Translations under genes and position numbers: made by a program | The notes under the pieces: generated by a model | Database searches by the model: none | What the model was told of the DNA's origin: nothing | Seen by the model: the letters and a program-made list of their open reading frames with translations, nothing else | Source of the DNA: Candidatus Omnitrophota bacterium | GTDB lineage: Bacteria; Omnitrophota; Gorgyraeia; 2-02-FULL-51-18 | Reading direction: 5' to 3' | Length of the DNA: 37,369 bases | NCBI GenBank assembly: GCA_023248025.1 | Contig: JAHFFI010000003.1 | Location: 1-37,369 of the forward strand | Shown here: positions 5,738-37,004 of the stretch, piece by piece | How positions within the stretch are numbered: the stretch's first letter is position 1 | Layout: each line of letters begins with the position of its first letter

Positions 5738-6460
5738 ATGGAACTTTTAAAAAAACGCGTGCTTATCACAGGCGGCGCCAAGCGGGTCGGGCGCGTTATC
5801 GCCTTGGCTCTAGCCAAAAAAGGCGCGTCCATACTACTCCACTGCCACAACTCACTCACTGAAGCCGAAATAACCGCGTCGGAAATAAAGGCACTGGGTG
5901 TCTCCTGCGAAATCTTACAGGCCGACCTCTCCCGTGTGGACCAGATACACGCCATGACCAAAAAAATCTCGACTCCCGTTGACATACTGATTAACAGCGC
6001 TTCGGCCTTCTATAAAACTCCCATTCGAGAGGTCACCGAAAAAAACTGGGATGAACTCCTGGATGCAAACCTCAAAGGTCCTTTTTTTCTTTCGCAGGAA
6101 TTAGCTTCCCGTATGGCGAATGGAACGGGAGGCAAGATTATCAACATTGCCGATTGGAGTGGAATACGCCCTTACAAGGACTACGCCCCCTACTGCGCTT
6201 CTAAAGGTGGCCTCATCACACTGACTAAAGCGTTAGCGCGTGATTTCGCCCCCAAAGTTTCGGTCAATGCCGTCGCCCCCGGCCCCGTCATGATGCCTGA
6301 GAATTTTTCTCAAGATGAAGTTAAGGCGATTGCTAACTTGACAGCTGTCGGCCGTATAGGAACTCCGGAAGATATCGCAAATGCAGTTATTTTTCTTCTC
6401 GAAAACGACTTCATCAACGGCACCGTTTTGACTGTCGACGGCGGCCGGTCCATAGTTTAA
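5738..6460 (+). CDS. SDR oxidoreductase, pteridine reductase (FolM/PTR1)-like
   Basis: TGGAKRVG (Arg typical of pteridine reductases), NSAS, YCASK, VDGG. Adjacent to queD. Confidence 0.85.
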   Translation: MELLKKRVLITGGAKRVGRVIALALAKKGASILLHCHNSLTEAEITASEIKALGVSCEILQADLSRVDQIHAMTKKISTPVDILINSASAFYKTPIREVTEKNWDELLDANLKGPFFLSQELASRMANGTGGKIINIADWSGIRPYKDYAPYCASKGGLITLTKALARDFAPKVSVNAVAPGPVMMPENFSQDEVKAIANLTAVGRIGTPEDIANAVIFLLENDFINGTVLTVDGGRSIV

Positions 6461-6486
6461 TCAACCATCTGACAATGCCTTTAAAT

Positions 6487-6826
6487 TAACCGACGGGTCC
6501 TGCCCACTCCCGAAGAACACCCTTAGCCAGGCCCCGGACCCCGGAAGTGGTCCTTTTGGTCGACGTATGGATTTCCCCTCCGAGGAAATCCACACTCCGT
6601 TAAAGTTTGCGCGTGTGTGAAAGTGGGTTTCCATGGCGCGCAAACTTCAAAGGCGCCCCAAAGGACCACTTCCGGGGTCCTATACCATTAGCTAATGAGT
6701 GTTCTATTAAAACCCAGAGAACCCGACGGGTGGCAAAGGACGAGGTCTATTTGCCCGGAGCCGCTAATAGACGGCGAGGACAAATAGACCTCGTCCTTTG
6801 ACAGGCCCCGTCGGTTACCTGGATTA
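6487..6826. repeat. Structured intergenic repeat, copy A (two multi-stem domains)
   Basis: Perfect 21-bp stem 6536-6556/6660-6680 enclosing two hairpins, and perfect 20-bp stem 6734-6753/6781-6800. Homologous to 12112-12512. The ends 6487-6504 and 6800-6817 are imperfect inverted repeats. Confidence 0.9.
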
Positions 6827-6849
6827 ATAGATCCAAATGAAGCACTTCG

Positions 6850-6879
6850 TTGACAGTGGGATAATACAATGGCTATACT
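6850..6879 (+). promoter_or_regulatory. Putative sigma70 promoter for queD
   Basis: TTGACA-N18-TATACT, followed by an AAGGA SD and ATG at 6892. Confidence 0.55.
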
Positions 6880-6891
6880 TATAAGGAAATT

Positions 6892-7326
6892 ATGTACACC
6901 GTCACAAAACAAATTCATTTCTGCTATGGTCACCGCCTTCTGGACTATGACGGCAAATGTGCCCATCCCCACGGCCACAACGGCGTCATCGAGATTGAGC
7001 TGTCCACCAATGCCCTGGACAAGCGCGGCATGGTATACGATTTCGGAGATATCAAGGGCATCATACAGGAGTGGGTGGATAAAGCTCTCGACCACAAGAT
7101 GATTTTAAGGAAGGATGACCCGCTTGTCCTTATTTTTAGAAAAATAAAGGAGCCCTATTTCGTCATGAATGACAACCCTACGGCCGAGGCTTTGGCTAAA
7201 CTTATTTTTGATTACGCCGATTCCAAAAAACTCCCCATCTCAAAAGTGAAATTCTGGGAAACCCAGAGCTCTTTCGCCACTTACTCCGTTCCATCTCGCT
7301 CCATTTCAATAATGGGAAAAAATTAA
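6892..7326 (+). CDS. queD: 6-carboxytetrahydropterin synthase / PTPS family
   Basis: FCYGHRL, KCAHPHGHN (CxxxHGH), LDH, NPTAE, WET motifs. Confidence 0.9.
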   Translation: MYTVTKQIHFCYGHRLLDYDGKCAHPHGHNGVIEIELSTNALDKRGMVYDFGDIKGIIQEWVDKALDHKMILRKDDPLVLIFRKIKEPYFVMNDNPTAEALAKLIFDYADSKKLPISKVKFWETQSSFATYSVPSRSISIMGKN

Positions 7327-8377: not shown

Positions 8378-8648
8378 ACTGAGGTTTCACTAATTAATGG
8401 GCACACTGGAAGCCCTCTTTTTGGCTGGATGCAAGGCGTGACGACGAAGGTGTGTCCTCTGCGACACATCAAGGAGGAACAACGCGGCAGACGGCCAAAA
8501 AGAGAGCTTCCCCGAAGGGGCTGGCCGCTTTTGGGCTGTGCCTGCGTCATTCGTCGTTGGCATAGTTAACACTATGCCTCCTCCTCTTTCCTTGTCTCGC
8601 TTCAAAATCAGCTCAGCCAGTGTGCCCATTAATTAGTGAAGCCTCAGT
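8378..8648. mobile_element. Non-autonomous MITE/REP-doublet-like element
   Basis: 32-nt inverted repeats 8378-8409 and 8617-8648 (1 mismatch) enclose two inversely oriented related hairpin units joined by ccccgaagggg. TAATTA occurs at both 8391-8396 and 8630-8635. Confidence 0.75.
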
Positions 8649-11015: not shown

Positions 11016-11046
11016 AGACTTGGATTATACGTGGTATCATAATCTC

Positions 11047-12108
11047 ATGCCATTCCAAAACGCGCTCCTGAAATGGTTCCAAAAAAACCAGCGCCCCCTG
11101 CCCTGGCGGAAGCATTACCGTCCTTATGAAGTTTGGATCTCAGAAGTGATGCTCCAACAAACACAGGTCGAGACGGCACTTCCCTTTTATGAGCGCTGGC
11201 TCAAGACTTTTCCGGATATAAAATCCCTTGCGGCCACCGATGAAAAGAAAGTGTTAAAGCTTTGGGAGGGCTTAGGCTACTATTCACGCGCTCGAAACTT
11301 GCATCACACTGCTAAATTAATCGTTAAAAAATTTAAAGGCAAATTTCCCTCGGATTTTAATTCGATCCTTTCCTTAAAAGGGATCGGTCGCTATTCGGCA
11401 GGCGCCATCGCGTCCATCGCTTTCAATCAAGAGCGGCCGATAGTGGACGGTAATGTCCTACGCGTCCTTTCGCGCATTTACGCGATCGATAAACCCATTG
11501 ACGTACCGGCTAACCGCGAGATTTTTTGGGAATTGCAGGAAAAATTGATCCCTAAAGGACAGGCGCGAAATTTTAATCAGGCGCTGATGGAACTTGGCGC
11601 GCTTGTTTGCGCTAAAAATGATCCCGCCTGTCTTATCTGTCCCATCCGCTCGTTCTGTAAAGCAACTACATTAAAAAATCCTGAGGCATTTCCGACGAAA
11701 CAAAATAAAAAACAAATGGTTCGCGTCACGGCAGCTGCGGTGATTTTGCGGCAAAACGGAAAGTTTTTAATCGAGCGGCGGCCTGTGGGAAAAATCATGG
11801 GAGGACTGTGGGAATTCCCGGAATGGAAACTTGTTAAAAATAAAAAAATAGGTCCTCCGGAAATTCTAACTAAGACTGAAAAACTGGTCTCAGAAAAATT
11901 CAGTTACAAGTCCGGAGTTCTGAAACCTCTAGCCGTCATAAAGCGTAATTACACCCATCACCTGGAAGCGCTTCACGTGTTTGAAACAGTGGCGCCGCTC
12001 ATCAAACTGCCGCAGGATTCATGGCAACGCGCCTGGGTGAGCCAAAAAAATATTACGCAGTATCCCTTCTCCGCCGCCCACGCCAAAATCGCAAAATTAA
12101 TTCAATAA
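11047..12108 (+). CDS. mutY: A/G-specific adenine glycosylase
   Basis: LPWR, SEVMLQQTQV, WEGLGYYSRARN, HhH-GPD VDGNV, FeS loop C-x6-C-x2-C-x5-C, C-terminal GLWEFP. ATG 11047 preferred over TTG 11020. Confidence 0.96.
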   Translation: MPFQNALLKWFQKNQRPLPWRKHYRPYEVWISEVMLQQTQVETALPFYERWLKTFPDIKSLAATDEKKVLKLWEGLGYYSRARNLHHTAKLIVKKFKGKFPSDFNSILSLKGIGRYSAGAIASIAFNQERPIVDGNVLRVLSRIYAIDKPIDVPANREIFWELQEKLIPKGQARNFNQALMELGALVCAKNDPACLICPIRSFCKATTLKNPEAFPTKQNKKQMVRVTAAAVILRQNGKFLIERRPVGKIMGGLWEFPEWKLVKNKKIGPPEILTKTEKLVSEKFSYKSGVLKPLAVIKRNYTHHLEALHVFETVAPLIKLPQDSWQRAWVSQKNITQYPFSAAHAKIAKLIQ

Positions 12109-12111
12109 TCA

Positions 12112-12512
12112 TAACCTCCAGATAGTCCCGCCAGCTCTCGAGCATACCCATTGCTAGGTCCCGGACCCCGGAAGTGGCCCTTGGGGTCAGCGCTCGGATT
12201 TCCCCTCCGAGGAAATCTGTCGCTCGATTGTCGTTTGCTCGTGTGTGAAAGTGGGTTTCCATGGCTCGCAAACGACAAACGCGCCCCCAAGGGCCACTTC
12301 CGGGGTCCTAGACCATTCGCTAATGAGAGTTCTATTAAAACAAAGAGAACCCGACGGGTGGCAAAGGGCGAGGTCTATTTGCCCGGAGCCGCTAATAGAC
12401 GGCGAGTCCGCCAGAGGACGGATCCGTCCACAAATCGCTCGTGCGATTTGATGGCGGAGACAAATAGACCTTCCCCTTCGACAGGCCCTGCCGGTTACAT
12501 TTGTTGAATTAA
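12112..12512. repeat. Structured intergenic repeat, copy B (carries a 52-bp nested insertion)
   Basis: Perfect 24-bp stem 12163-12186/12285-12308. Collinear with copy A and in the same orientation. Confidence 0.9.
12407..12458. repeat. 52-bp palindromic insertion inside repeat copy B
   Basis: tccgcca...tggcgga closing stem encloses the palindrome ggacggatccgtcc and the hairpin caaatcgc-tcgt-gcgatttg. Absent from copy A. Confidence 0.85.
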
Positions 12513-12937
12513 GAGCAGTTTTTGCAGAAACCGAATAATTTGAGGCTGTGATAGACGATGTGAAATTTTTGTCGTGTGGCTTCCCGGTCTTGCAGCTTTT
12601 CGATGGCGTCATTCTCAAATTCGATGATGCGCCCGCAACGGATACAAACAAGGTGGTCATGATGCTTTCGCCCCTGAGACCGTTCGTAGACTTTTTTTCC
12701 TTCACCAAAATCCTGCTCTTCCAGGATATTACTTTCCTTTAATAAAGTGAGTGTGCGATAAACCGTTGCTTTGGAAATAGTCTTGTCTTTTTTCTTGGAA
12801 AGTTCGAGCAGCTTTTCCGCTGAAAAATGCCCCTGCGCTTCGATGGCCTGCCGCAAAATAGTCCGGCGCTGACTGGTTAGTTTAAGTGATTTTTTTTCTA
12901 AAAACTCTGTAAATGAAGCCTCAGCTTCTTTTATCAT
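12509..12937 (-). CDS. fur: Fur-family transcriptional regulator
   Basis: LTSQR, HFSAE, ATVYRTL, HHDHLVCIRCG, C-terminal CKNC. Last gene of an iron operon. Confidence 0.88.
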   Translation of the reverse strand: MIKEAEASFTEFLEKKSLKLTSQRRTILRQAIEAQGHFSAEKLLELSKKKDKTISKATVYRTLTLLKESNILEEQDFGEGKKVYERSQGRKHHDHLVCIRCGRIIEFENDAIEKLQDREATRQKFHIVYHSLKLFGFCKNCS

Positions 12938-20160: not shown

Positions 20161-21957
20161 TTATTGTATCATAATTGCGGCTACCTTCGTTCTGTCCTCA
20201 CGGCTGCGACTATCCATAACCTTCAATTGATAATTAAAAGTATCAGGAAGATCTTTAATATATAGAGAGTACTCATAAGGGATGGGGCTTGGCAGCTCTA
20301 TGGTTTCGAAGGGTTTCAGGTAGTTATCGTAGAGAATGATTTCGGCTTTCTTAATAAATAAAGAGTAGTTGGTGTGGATGGTGAATGTGAGCTTATCTTT
20401 ATCTTGGGTAGCATCTATAGAGAGTTTAGGTTTAAGAAGTAGAGGGTCTTGGAAAATAGAAGCTTTGAGTAAGGGTGCATTATGGACCTGATCAACGCCG
20501 TCGCCCGTCAGACGTACACCAAAAGATACCTTAGAGAGAATACCTTCTGTGATGGTGATTTTTCTCGGGGATTCGGTTGTGATGCTAGAGCCTTCGGGAA
20601 GCGTTGATTCATCTATTTTTAGTACTCTTTGGCCTGTTTCGATGTAAGGGAAGTGGTATTTGCCATCGCTATCGGTGATAGCGTAGATGCCTGAATCACT
20701 GGCTACTTTAACCCCCTCCATTCCTTTTTCACCGCCATCTTGTTCTCCGTTACCGTTCTTGTCTTCAAAAACCTTCCCCACCAGAGACTTTCCCTGGGTG
20801 AATTGGGGACCTAATTCTATACCGCTTTCGCCAGAGAGGTTGAAGATGAGAATACGGCGATTGGTGGTATCACCAACAAAAAGCTGCTTTCCGTTAAAAG
20901 TAACTGAACTCGCAGCACATTGCCTTTGTGAAACGCCAGCATCCTTTAAATGAAAATCAGATTGACCAATAACAAAATCGGCTGGTTGACCATTTTTTGT
21001 TGGAACGCTCTTCCAAATCAGCACTCTATTATTGTTCTGATCGGCAATAAATAAGCTTTTACCATCTGAAATAAGATCTTGCGGTGAATCCATTGATCGT
21101 GCGCTAACCCCTCCGTTATTACTATTGTTAGAAATAAAATCGGGTTGACCCAACACTACGTCTGCAGGCTCAAAGTTTGTTGTTGGAATCTTGTTCCATA
21201 TCAGAACTCGATTATTCGATGAATCCGCAACATAAAAACGACCGCCGGCACAAACGGCTTTTTCAGGAGACGATAGCGTTCTTGCACTGATACCTCCATT
21301 ATTTGCGGTTGAGGACGTAAAATTTGGCTGACCGATCACAAAATCGCCCGGAGCATTATTCGTAGTAGGAATTGTATTCCAGGCCAAGATAACATTGTGA
21401 TTACGATTGACTGAAAATAACTTCTCGCTGCACGTCGCAATTCCCCGAATGCCATTGGTAGATCGTTGTGTTGGGGGATTTATATTGGTACTTGATGTGA
21501 AGTTGGCTTGCCCCAAAACAACATCGGCCAACGTCCCATTTGTCGTCGGAATGGACCTCCAAATCAAAAGACGGCGACCTCCATTATCAGCAACAAATAA
21601 GCTTTTGCCGTCGGATATAACTCCCAATGGTTGGGAAATATTTTTTTGAGTGACCGAACCGCCAGAGTCGGTAAAAAGATCCTGCCCAACCACAACATCC
21701 GCCGGCCCGCGATTCACTTTTGGAACACTATTCCATATTAGAATGCGCCGATTTGTTGAATCGGCAACAAAAAAACGGTTACCAACCGCAGACATTGCGC
21801 GAGGATTAAATTGAAATTGATTTGCGGCTATAGCATCGGTGTCACTAAAACTGTTTTGCCCCAACACTACGTCTGCATCCATGCCATTCTGTAACTTGGC
21901 CTGGGCAAGGCTTGAGATAAGTAAAAATATAAAAATAAGGGGTAGCTTACGAGACAT
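20161..21957 (-). CDS. Secreted NHL-repeat beta-propeller protein with SdrD-B-like domain and C-terminal beta domain
   Basis: Signal peptide; six repeats of (A/G)D(V/F)V(L/V/I)GQxxF...R(I/V)LIW; GKVFEDKNGNGEQDGGEKG...ITDSDGKYHF...TLPEG. Confidence 0.85.
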   Translation of the reverse strand: MSRKLPLIFIFLLISSLAQAKLQNGMDADVVLGQNSFSDTDAIAANQFQFNPRAMSAVGNRFFVADSTNRRILIWNSVPKVNRGPADVVVGQDLFTDSGGSVTQKNISQPLGVISDGKSLFVADNGGRRLLIWRSIPTTNGTLADVVLGQANFTSSTNINPPTQRSTNGIRGIATCSEKLFSVNRNHNVILAWNTIPTTNNAPGDFVIGQPNFTSSTANNGGISARTLSSPEKAVCAGGRFYVADSSNNRVLIWNKIPTTNFEPADVVLGQPDFISNNSNNGGVSARSMDSPQDLISDGKSLFIADQNNNRVLIWKSVPTKNGQPADFVIGQSDFHLKDAGVSQRQCAASSVTFNGKQLFVGDTTNRRILIFNLSGESGIELGPQFTQGKSLVGKVFEDKNGNGEQDGGEKGMEGVKVASDSGIYAITDSDGKYHFPYIETGQRVLKIDESTLPEGSSITTESPRKITITEGILSKVSFGVRLTGDGVDQVHNAPLLKASIFQDPLLLKPKLSIDATQDKDKLTFTIHTNYSLFIKKAEIILYDNYLKPFETIELPSPIPYEYSLYIKDLPDTFNYQLKVMDSRSREDRTKVAAIMIQ

Positions 21958-36115: not shown

Positions 36116-36372
36116 TTTTTACCGTTGCGGAGATACATATTATGCTCTCGAAAATCCGCAGCCGAAGCGTCGGAGCCTGTGGCTTCCCCGTTAGAATACC
36201 CCGTCCGGCGTATTGCGCTATATTTCTTTATATCATTGGTCAACGATTCTTGCCTGTCATTACGGTAACCTGAGGATGATTCGTCGGCTCCGTATATGTC
36301 TGAGAATTCTTGGCCCCACGCTTGATAACTTAATCCCAGGAGGAACGCTGTCACCAATATAATATTTTTCAT
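36112..36372 (-). CDS. Small secreted protein, paralog 2
   Basis: Signal peptide 19/20 identical to 36573-36893, YRND, DASAADF, GGAG SD. Confidence 0.78.
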   Translation of the reverse strand: MKNIILVTAFLLGLSYQAWGQEFSDIYGADESSSGYRNDRQESLTNDIKKYSAIRRTGYSNGEATGSDASAADFREHNMYLRNGKK

Positions 36373-36491
36373 AATTAAACTCCCATTCTTCCGGCACCAC
36401 TCGTTACCCCGGATTCAATCATCTCACTACTATTCATAAAAGCTATTAGGAAACATCTAAACTTCGCCATGTTGCTAATCCCCTTAATCAA

Positions 36492-36545
36492 AGCATACAT
36501 GAAGATACTTGGGTTTTCAATAGACGTTAATAGACAAAATACTTT
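36492..36545 (-). promoter_or_regulatory. Duplicated promoter 1 with upstream direct repeat
   Basis: aaagtatttt-GTCTATT-aac-GTCTATT overlapping TTGAAA-N17-TATGCT. Confidence 0.7.
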
Positions 36546-36572
36546 AATATATGCGCACTCAGCTAATTCTTT

Positions 36573-36893
36573 TTAGTCTTCGAGAAAGCCGCCTATAATG
36601 GTAGGAGTATTTCCGCGGCCTACAACAACCCTGTTGGTATCTGTTCTATCGCGATTATCATTACCGCCGCGACCATAATCACTCGGTGAGGCATCATAGG
36701 CGTCATTAGCACCTGGGGCCTGAGTCCGGTAGGATACGCTCCCTTTTGTAATAGATCGCAGCAATTGCTTCGTTTCGTCATTACGGTAAGTTACATCACT
36801 TGAAGACGCTTCATATTCGTCTACAGAAAATTCGCCCCAAGCTTGGTAGCTTAATCCCAGAAGAAACGCTATCACTAGAATAATATTTTTCAT
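36573..36893 (-). CDS. Small secreted protein, paralog 1
   Basis: Signal peptide, YRND, DASPSDY, C-terminal TPTIIGGFLED. Confidence 0.78.
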   Translation of the reverse strand: MKNIILVIAFLLGLSYQAWGEFSVDEYEASSSDVTYRNDETKQLLRSITKGSVSYRTQAPGANDAYDASPSDYGRGGNDNRDRTDTNRVVVGRGNTPTIIGGFLED

Positions 36894-37004
36894 AACTCAA
36901 CAACCCCTATTTATCTGGAACTACTGGTCGTTTCATATTTAATCGTCGTACTAATATTGATTAATAATAATAAAAAGTATTAGCTCTTTACAACCTTTGA
37001 TTAA

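Follow-up and report, generated by a model that had tools for sequence, protein, structure and literature searches.

What kind of element is a dispersed, strongly folded repeat that lies between genes, and what preserves its fold? The question is raised by the window analysed here, a stretch of 37,369 nucleotides (nt) on contig JAHFFI010000003.1 of a Candidatus Omnitrophota genome bin (1.47 Mb in 152 contigs, 84% complete; the window is contig C2). A first-pass annotation of the sequence had placed two copies of the repeat at 6487-6826 (copy A) and 12112-12512 (copy B); the coordinates are right, and the copies are collinear, strongly folded and both intergenic. Two modules recur in them: D1, a three-way junction occupying 6536-6680 of the plus strand in copy A, and D2, a 94-nt hairpin at 6723-6816 (plus strand). 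The family to which they belong is high-copy, modular and conserved in fold, is patchy across one class, and has undergone a burst specific to its own genome. Presence and absence at orthologous gene junctions, nesting, and covarying stems with conserved loops across genera carry this description. On balance, the family is probably a mobile element, proliferating and non-autonomous, that is recognised through the fold of its single strand. It resembles the hairpin doublets of repetitive extragenic palindromic (REP) sequences known as REPINs, the bacterial interspersed mosaic elements (BIMEs) and the miniature inverted-repeat transposable elements (MITEs).

Two copies among many

A repeat search shows copies A and B to be collinear over three blocks, of 174 nt (93% identity), 77 nt (82%) and 56 nt (79%), and also detects the inverted repeats that make up the stems of both. 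The compensatory differences quoted by the first-pass annotation are real: GGTCC/GGACC in copy A corresponds to GGCCC/GGGCC in copy B, and AAGTTTGC/GCAAACTT to GTCGTTTGC/GCAAACGAC. The two copies are, yet, only two of many, since the genome holds 31 full D1 copies, 67 D2 apexes and 88 high-copy regions. BLAST of copy A against its own genome, one of the checks proposed at the outset, gives 116 matches at 86 loci. Counted as non-overlapping BLAST matches of copy A pieces, the spacer P5 (6497-6531) yields 5 matches, D1 (6532-6682, 151 nt) 55, the linker between D1 and D2 (6683-6722, plus strand) 18, and D2 (6723-6816) 87 pieces; INS, a 52-nt insert taken from copy B (12407-12458), yields 21.

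The full-length D1 copies are 83-95% identical to the D1 of copy A (BLAST), and none of the 31 lies inside an open reading frame (ORF). A D2 apex follows 50-76 nt downstream on the same strand in 28 of them; two of the others are cut by contig ends and one is without a D2 apex. D2 is found also alone and in other composites. Its main apex type is present 67 times, 65 of which contain an identical 26-mer, a second apex type is represented by 17 copies, and the foot motif of the hairpin occurs 107 times. High-copy repeats total 24.8 kb, or 1.69% of the assembly. As 30 of the 304 contig ends lie inside repeats, true copy numbers are probably higher. A repeat family grown to about 2% of a 1.5-Mb genome in one lineage is also a marker accounting for many assembly breaks in these bins.

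The 21 copies of INS (one being cut by a contig end) are 100% identical and always occupy one position of the D2 apex, in D2 hairpins with at least six different arm combinations. The uniformity of INS while the hairpins that carry it differ suggests a very recent site-specific nested insertion or gene conversion. Matched and chimeric combinations of D2 arms both occur, the chimeras chiefly in INS-carrying copies, and result either from recombination between copies or from short-read assembly errors. Every boundary examined is flanked again by inverted repeats, so that the elements look like nested palindromes and their true ends are fuzzy. A composite of about 590 nt (inverted D2 with INS, D1, D2 and a right terminal repeat) is found at C7:736-1324 and at C124:3184-3776, as a true duplicate or an assembly duplicate.

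Several properties first read as general turn out to be partly so. The H1 loop of D1, CCTCCGA, is indeed fixed in all 30 aligned copies; the H2 loop, described as equally invariant, varies among the aligned D1 copies (GTGAAAGTGGG, GTAAGAGTAGG, GTAAAAGTAGG). The 20-bp stem ascribed to D2 is perfect in copy A, and in copy B the arms are of different subtypes, 23 nt long and 83% complementary. The D2 apex, called invariant, is in copy B followed by the 52-nt insert at 12407-12458. The absence of a credible ORF stands, as no ORF is conserved between the copies (homologues of the ORFs were not searched for): the repeat contains ORFs of only 60 and 64 amino acids in copy A and one of 118 amino acids in copy B, none common to both, and 1-nt indels between the copies disrupt any reading frame.

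Fold and covariation within the genome

Single-strand folding of each strand, compared with dinucleotide shuffles, gave z-scores of -9.3 (plus) and -12.3 (minus) for D1, of -9.5 (plus) and -11.7 (minus) for D2, and of -5.2 and -5.1 on the two strands of the 52-nt INS. The within-genome alignment of D1 comprises 30 sequences, 28 of them distinct, and 52 pairs, with 98.9% of cells paired. Nine pairs are changed on both sides, a value reached by 33 of 500 shuffles, and slid controls give 0-2 such pairs. Changed cells number 62 against 20.7 in shuffles (reached by 0/500), and the covariation score is 0.151 against 0.073 (0/500). For D2 (45 sequences, 40 distinct, 37 pairs), 96.8% of cells are paired, eight pairs are changed on both sides (2/500 shuffles) and 74 cells are changed against 28.1 in shuffles (0/500). 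The copies within the genome are paralogues belonging to a few subfamilies, and these figures therefore reflect few independent events.

Conservation of the fold in related genomes

Omnitrophota are abundant, uncultured bacteria with small genomes, and the one DNA run containing the window is labelled as a groundwater metagenome. The nearest genomes, as judged by the MutY protein encoded beside copy B, are bins titled Candidatus Omnitrophota or Omnitrophica and some titled "uncultured Planctomycetia"; MutY identity is 56-66% for 29 loci, and the 30th, at 48%, belongs to a Cyclobacteriaceae bin. BLAST of copy A against 40 relatives returned nothing convincing, with one marginal match of 34 nt. 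Sequence search is too blunt for this family, which calls for covariance models. Models of D1 (R1) and D2 (R2), as had been recommended, were built, and both match other genomes.

With R1, 19 of 31 genomes of the same family prove to contain full-length D1-like copies, with 1-15 copies per genome and scores of 34-67 bits. None was found in seven genomes from other families of the order, nor in G385 and G398; for the other families in the class, 6 of 87 sampled genomes have such copies, G051 having nine. In these relatives, the outer and inner stems are wholly different in sequence, yet paired. The unpaired parts are conserved: the 5' junction CGACGC, the H1 loop CCCNCCGAG, GCTCGGT and AACGCG; CCATGGCCGCTCGC in H2 is kept in many of the copies. 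Covariation was measured on 43 matches from 40 fetched loci in 19 genomes, fitted to the model R1, with the own genome excluded and two of the matches being opposite-strand echoes. In this set, 91.9% of cells pair (58.2% in shuffles), 50 of 52 pairs are changed on both sides (0/500 shuffles), 670 cells are changed against 195 in shuffles, and covariation reaches 0.698 against 0.174 in shuffles and 0.08-0.12 in slid controls. An independent MAFFT/RNAalifold run on 36 sequences recovered the inner part of the outer stem P1 and hairpin H1, each of the 20 pairs that it predicts being changed on both sides; the hypervariable outer P1 and H2 were not alignable in this run.

The first-pass annotation had proposed that selection acts on both fold and loop sequence, and had looked to a larger alignment for the decisive covariation. 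The alignments from other genomes bear the proposal out: the covariation of D1 in relatives is well above that of shuffles, and the stems differ completely and still pair around conserved loops and junctions. Since stems change in step while loops stay fixed, shape is what is kept. It is unusual for a repeat that the stems are free to change and the loops and junctions remain fixed across many genera.

R2 finds D2-like copies in 18 of the 31 family genomes and in none of the seven genomes in the rest of the order. The six R2 alignments viewed have the foot (CGNCGGGTGGC / GACAGGACCCGNCG) in common around variable stems, and five of the six the sub-apical loop (GCCCGGAG / CGAGGAC). In the one G047 alignment that was viewed, a D2-like copy has about 50 nt inserted at the corresponding apex. 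In several genera, as in the own genome, D1 is followed by a D2-like hairpin. A 15-mer of the foot occurs 72 times in the own genome (0 for the reversed control); two distant members of the class have it 11 and 5 times, and in relatives it gives 16 matches in 12 of 38 genomes of the order against 3 for the reversed control. Many of these last matches are short palindromes within long open frames, and two are true D2-like hairpins (G014, G003). G398 contains hairpins of about 105 nt with the same foot and a different interior. An exact-word scan with a 22-mer of the D2 apex gave no match in collections of genome contigs and viral contigs. A 21-mer of H1 was found in three metagenome contigs, where only a hairpin of 22-24 nt matched, and this is dismissed as chance.

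The distribution is patchy. D1 is absent from 12 of the 31 family genomes and both modules from 8, several of which are 96-100% complete. Different genera carry near-identical copies, and some P1 types are common between genera. The D1-like copies at L219 and L220 (G009) and at L222 (G047) are nearly identical and lie in bins of different genera, by either horizontal transfer or a binning artefact. R1 and R2 are two covariance models ready for annotation.

Could the pairing be a by-product of DNA-level upkeep of palindromes, without selection on the fold, leaving the repeats as inert debris of palindromes, with layers added on the outside? Arms would become perfectly complementary through intrastrand template switching at quasi-palindromes or through hairpin repair. 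Such a process would account for complementarity that is almost purely Watson-Crick, for strands that fold about equally well, for the onion-like architecture with inverted repeats around each boundary examined, and for the outer stem, individual to each D1 copy, that pairs perfectly over 14 bp or more. However, mutation alone would let loops drift as fast as stems, and the unpaired loops and junctions are conserved across genera where the stems have diverged. D1, moreover, is not a single palindrome but three separate helices in a fixed arrangement, and palindrome upkeep leaves unexplained both the orientation bias toward the upstream gene and the excess of G.U over A.C cells in the own-genome D2, described below. 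We consider this explanation quite improbable.

Filled and empty orthologous gene junctions

Empty orthologous sites, which had been suggested as a check, were found. The MutY and Fur genes lie side by side and convergent in 20 of 29 relatives, and in 10 of these 20 the gap between them is 20 nt or less or the genes overlap; in the own genome the gap is 400 nt, all of it copy B. Other relatives have different, highly structured inserts of 175-530 nt in this gap. In three of these loci (L116, L125 and L135, from other Omnitrophota) a second conserved, highly structured repeat was noticed (...GGGGAGACGCCAAAAA...TTTTTGGCGAGGGG...), which occurs in several genera and also in the own genome at about 12040-12190 of C124. 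At the cysE-cysS junction, G011 and G047 contain a D1-like copy, with unrelated P1 stems, and the own genome has a gap of about 35 nt.

A probable mobile element recognised by its fold

In the mobile element that we favour, the modules of the family would be defined by fold: D1 by its three-way junction, D2 by a long hairpin with an asymmetric foot and a sub-apical loop, with small nested inserts, INS among them. A copy would be recognised as a folded single strand, by its shape and a few conserved unpaired bases, for which the candidates are the D1 junctions CGACGC / GCTCGGT / AACGCG, the H1 loop CCCNCCGAG and the D2 foot GGGTGGC / GACAGGNCCCG. A putative enzyme acting in trans would then copy or move the element into intergenic DNA, where it would usually land just 3' of a same-strand gene's stop codon, and sometimes within the apex of a second hairpin. 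The parts of this scheme that we infer are transposition itself, a single-stranded intermediate and a dedicated enzyme. The family would offer a case in which the recognition of nucleic acid by its structure, through an enzyme or binding protein, can be tested.

Several observations weigh against this reading, beginning with the insertion sites themselves. No direct repeat that could be a target-site duplication borders the GTAAC...GTTAC ends in 14 of 15 long elements, the single 4-nt border match among the 15 abutting a contig end, and none is found at 41 D1-like copies of relatives. Insertion polymorphism at the population level was not observed in the runs, which are available as contig fragments only; Logan contigs of three runs covered the repeat in short pieces, left the unique flanks uncovered and had no joints. 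The outer stems of D1 differ between copies within single relative genomes, which one would not usually expect of a family in recent transposition and which is equally compatible with loci that are old and stable. The chimeric D2 arms could in part be artefacts of short-read assembly. Further points on the same side come from the orientation of the copies and from the search for an enzyme: in five relatives, 22 of the 29 loci have the gene 5' of D1 running in the same direction, at a median distance of 14 nt, and the transposase evidence is given in the section on candidate enzymes.

RNA or single-stranded DNA

The orientation bias could reflect an RNA-level role at the resident site. Nineteen of the 22 same-direction gaps measure 41 nt or less from the stop codon, and with so little space on the 5' side an own promoter is unlikely on that strand, so that any RNA would be read-through from the upstream gene. 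The bias is weaker in the own genome, where 20 of 31 D1 copies follow the direction of the upstream gene; antisense copies number 11 of 31 there and 7 of 29 in the relatives.

According to a second explanation, D1 and D2 are structured RNA serving the host, in cis within 3' untranslated regions (UTRs) or as a multi-copy non-coding RNA, and the burst is secondary. Read through from the upstream gene, such an RNA might protect 3' ends, act in termination or provide a platform for protein binding. It would explain the bias toward the upstream gene, the covariation of stems with conservation of loops and junctions across at least 13 genera, and the C-rich H1 loop, and it is consistent with the D2 of the own genome, where the strand of copy A has 71 G.U against 5 A.C cells. 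The D1 of relatives conflicts with this last result. Its P1 has 706 Watson-Crick, 3 G.U, 17 A.C and 29 other cells out of 755, and all its helices except the H2 apex together have 22 G.U and 33 A.C; the pairing looks more like DNA complementarity than RNA, wobble being almost absent. Also at odds with a host RNA are the lack of a T-run after the stems, the patchy presence, with several near-complete genomes (96-100%) without modules, the 31-107 copies here in mosaic and nested arrangements, the antisense copies, and the absence of any Rfam match. Altogether, a host RNA appears rather unlikely. The almost purely Watson-Crick pairing tips the balance slightly toward single-stranded DNA (ssDNA) rather than RNA. 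No sequencing run that contains the stretch is registered as RNA, and a metatranscriptome from the same sample contains next to none of the sampled words of the stretch. If RNA is true, the family would be a new, widespread structured RNA of 3' UTRs; if ssDNA is true, it would extend biology of the REP and attC kind to a new phylum and a new fold.

The comparison with Rfam (release 15) supports the earlier description of the repeat as undescribed: the 37-kb window gives no match at gathering score. A run in E-value mode, restricted to copy A (window 6400-6900), gives matches at chance level only, the best having E = 0.55 and 18 bits against a cut-off of 100. The modules resemble Rfam structured RNAs in their covarying helices, conserved loops and size of about 100-150 nt per module, and differ from them by the near absence of G.U pairs in the D1 of relatives. 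No description of such repeats in Omnitrophota was found in the literature searched. Four known candidates were set aside on checks of the sequence only. For hammerhead or other small ribozymes, a sequence check revealed no core motifs and Rfam no match. GGGTGGC of the D2 foot resembles the T-box of T-box leaders, but the neighbouring genes are unrelated, both orientations occur and Rfam gives no match. An intrinsic terminator lacks its T-run after the stems. IS66-type ends carry GTAA; no 8-bp duplication is present here.

Candidate enzymes

Six Pfam families were searched in the own genome: Y1_Tnp, the TnpB zinc-ribbon, IS110, rve, DDE_Tnp_1 and RVT_1. Y1_Tnp is the only one present, with two genes resembling REP-associated tyrosine transposases (RAYTs), at C121:5853-6485 (minus strand) and C39:3-566 (plus strand), loci L032 and L033. 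Their proteins are 40% identical to each other and score 53-55 bits against the NCBIfam model REP_Tyr_transpos, below its cut-off of 80 bits. The other five families have no match in this 84% complete genome, which is again unfavourable to a mobile element.

The first-pass annotation had pointed to a REP/RAYT, HUH or IS200/605-like link, and the corresponding explanation is that D1 and D2 are REP- or REPIN-type modules mobilised by one of the two own RAYT-like Y1 transposases, on ssDNA at the replication fork. The two Y1 genes are the sole transposase-like genes among the six families. In addition, 78 of the 107 foot motifs are followed by TTAC (71) or TTAG (7), which on the other strand is GTAA or CTAA directly before the small palindrome GACGGGNCCTGTC; GTAA is similar to, not the same as, the GTAG that stands next to a palindrome in the REP layout given in PMC8266576. 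REPINs are hairpin doublets with compensatory changes according to PMC3116915, and D2 has such changes. Lastly, the C39 Y1 protein finds its best matches in G003, G398 and G385, which are the three genomes that contain 4-11 foot motifs.

Adjacency and distribution across genomes both fail for this link. The hallmark of a REPtron is a RAYT gene flanked by its cognate REPs (PMC8266576, PMC3116915). The C121 Y1 gene is instead flanked on both sides by a different perfect hairpin of 29 nt, GTGCCAGAGGGGTC[A/T]GACCCCTCTGGCAC, present at six loci here, whose core GGGGTCWGACCCC is distinct from D1 and D2. The GGGGTCAGACCCC core is also found upstream of a G398 Y1 gene and inside the L116 insert. The C121 gene with its 29-nt hairpin looks like a separate, low-copy REP/RAYT system. 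The C39 Y1 gene has its 5' flank cut off by the contig end, and its 3' flank is without similarity beyond chance, with 1 of 41 short matches lying in repeats; a 12-nt match of this flank to copy A was discarded as chance level. A D2 foot stands beside the Y1 gene in none of 12 Y1 loci of five other genomes; at L170 a single left-foot-like match, with one mismatch, is found some 880 nt away from the gene. Of the 31 genomes of the family (f1; completeness 68-100%), 24 have Y1 genes. These genes are present in 13 of the 19 D1-positive genomes and absent from 6, including G002 at 95% completeness, and they are present in 11 of 12 D1-negative genomes of the family and in 7 of 8 that lack both modules. 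Since neither adjacency nor co-occurrence is found, the defining features of a REPtron are lacking, the GTAA-like tetranucleotide being a partial exception. D1 is, moreover, far larger and more complex than any REP unit. Mobilisation by an own Y1 transposase is very doubtful.

A broader possibility, to which we give tentative credence, is that D1 and D2 serve as recognition modules for a fold-defined mobile element of a new kind, moved by an enzyme outside the tested families (Y1/RAYT, TnpB, IS110, the DDE transposases rve and DDE_Tnp_1, and reverse transcriptase), or else a new multi-copy structured RNA of 3' UTRs. The mobile element would be spread over one Omnitrophota class and would prefer hairpin apexes and positions just after stop codons for its insertion. 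With either alternative, the three-way junction and the asymmetric D2 foot would be putative protein-binding sites.

Comparison with known systems

The family shares with REP, BIME and REPIN sequences its high-copy intergenic palindromic units arranged in mosaics, its long hairpins with compensatory changes and the occurrence of RAYT-like genes in the genome; the conserved tetranucleotide next to the foot palindrome is similar rather than the same (GTAA here, usually GTAG in REPs). It differs from them in that no RAYT gene is flanked by D1 or D2 (one own upstream flank is missing), that the modules do not track RAYT presence, and that stems are hypervariable between copies whereas loops are conserved. 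D1 is, furthermore, a 150-nt three-way junction with conserved junction bases and not a palindrome of 20-50 nt.

Bacterial MITEs such as Correia/NEMIS and RUP are non-coding elements of 100-400 nt with inverted termini, intergenic, in many copies and subfamilies, and have long and short forms with common ends. By this general description, the terminal inverted repeats of the present family are MITE-like: the left terminal motif TAACCGACGGGTCCTG pairs with the right end CAGGCCCCGTCGGTTA. In contrast to MITEs, no target-site duplication was found. A search of this 84% complete bin for rve, DDE_Tnp_1 and IS110 yielded no autonomous insertion sequence (IS) with the same ends, IS elements being often left unassembled. 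Conservation in D1 resides in internal loops rather than in termini, and genera have the fold in common.

BOX elements of Streptococcus pneumoniae and the neisserial mosaic elements are modular intergenic mosaics of short structure-forming modules, and are not known to have a dedicated transposase. The present family is likewise a modular intergenic mosaic when set against that general picture; it differs in its unrelated sequence and phylum, in the deep covariation of each module and in its class-wide reach. The attC site of integrons is recognised as folded ssDNA and has a conserved asymmetric hairpin base with a variable, complementary central stem. The conserved asymmetric foot and variable paired stem of D2 recall it when compared with the general attC consensus rather than with a model. 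Unlike attC sites, the copies are dispersed singly between housekeeping genes on many contigs and not in cassette arrays, and the R'/R'' core motifs are not consistently present. The IS200/IS605-derived palindrome-associated transposable elements (PATEs) and TnpB guide RNAs differ from the family in that TnpB has no match here and the Y1 genes are not adjacent to the repeats.

Organisation of the copies and neighbouring genes

From its left to its right end, copy A (6487-6826, plus strand) is a composite of the left terminal motif, spacer P5, D1, the linker and D2. The left terminal motif TAACCGACGGGTCCTG (6488-6502, plus strand) is an inverted match to the D2 right end CAGGCCCCGTCGGTTA, and the global fold of copy A pairs the two. 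In D1, the outer stem P1 pairs 6536-6559 with 6657-6680 and encloses hairpin H1, with its CCTCCGA loop, at about 6565-6595 and hairpin H2 at about 6597-6655. In D2, a foot that is asymmetric and conserved (CCGACGGGTGGC / GACAGGCCCCGTCGG) bears a stem whose sequence varies and covaries, topped by the conserved apex GCCCGGAGCCGCTAATAGACGGCGAG. A tail module (ACCTGGATTAATAGATCC...) at 6817-6841 (plus strand) recurs after most D2 copies, and is found inverted before long elements. Upstream of copy A, on the same strand, is a short-chain dehydrogenase gene (5738-6460, plus strand), and downstream a gene of the 6-pyruvoyl tetrahydropterin synthase (PTPS) family (6892-7326, plus strand).

Copy B (12112-12512, plus strand) occupies the whole 400-nt gap between the MutY-like glycosylase gene (11020-12108, plus strand), upstream of it on the same strand, and the convergent Fur family gene (12509-12937, minus strand). 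Its D1 spans 12159-12310 (plus strand) and its D2, with two arm subtypes, 12351-12498 (plus strand). The latter is split by INS (12407-12458, plus strand), a small three-way fold in the D2 apex.

Three further repeats were noticed in the window. An inverted repeat at 8378-8648, with 70-nt arms that are 74% complementary and 131 nt apart, overlaps short ORFs and does not belong to the D1/D2 family. At 36287-36901, a 94-nt direct repeat is 76% identical between copies 521 nt apart. Five direct repeats of about 32 nt, spaced by about 183 nt, occupy 20952-21877 and probably correspond to a tandem-repeat protein domain.

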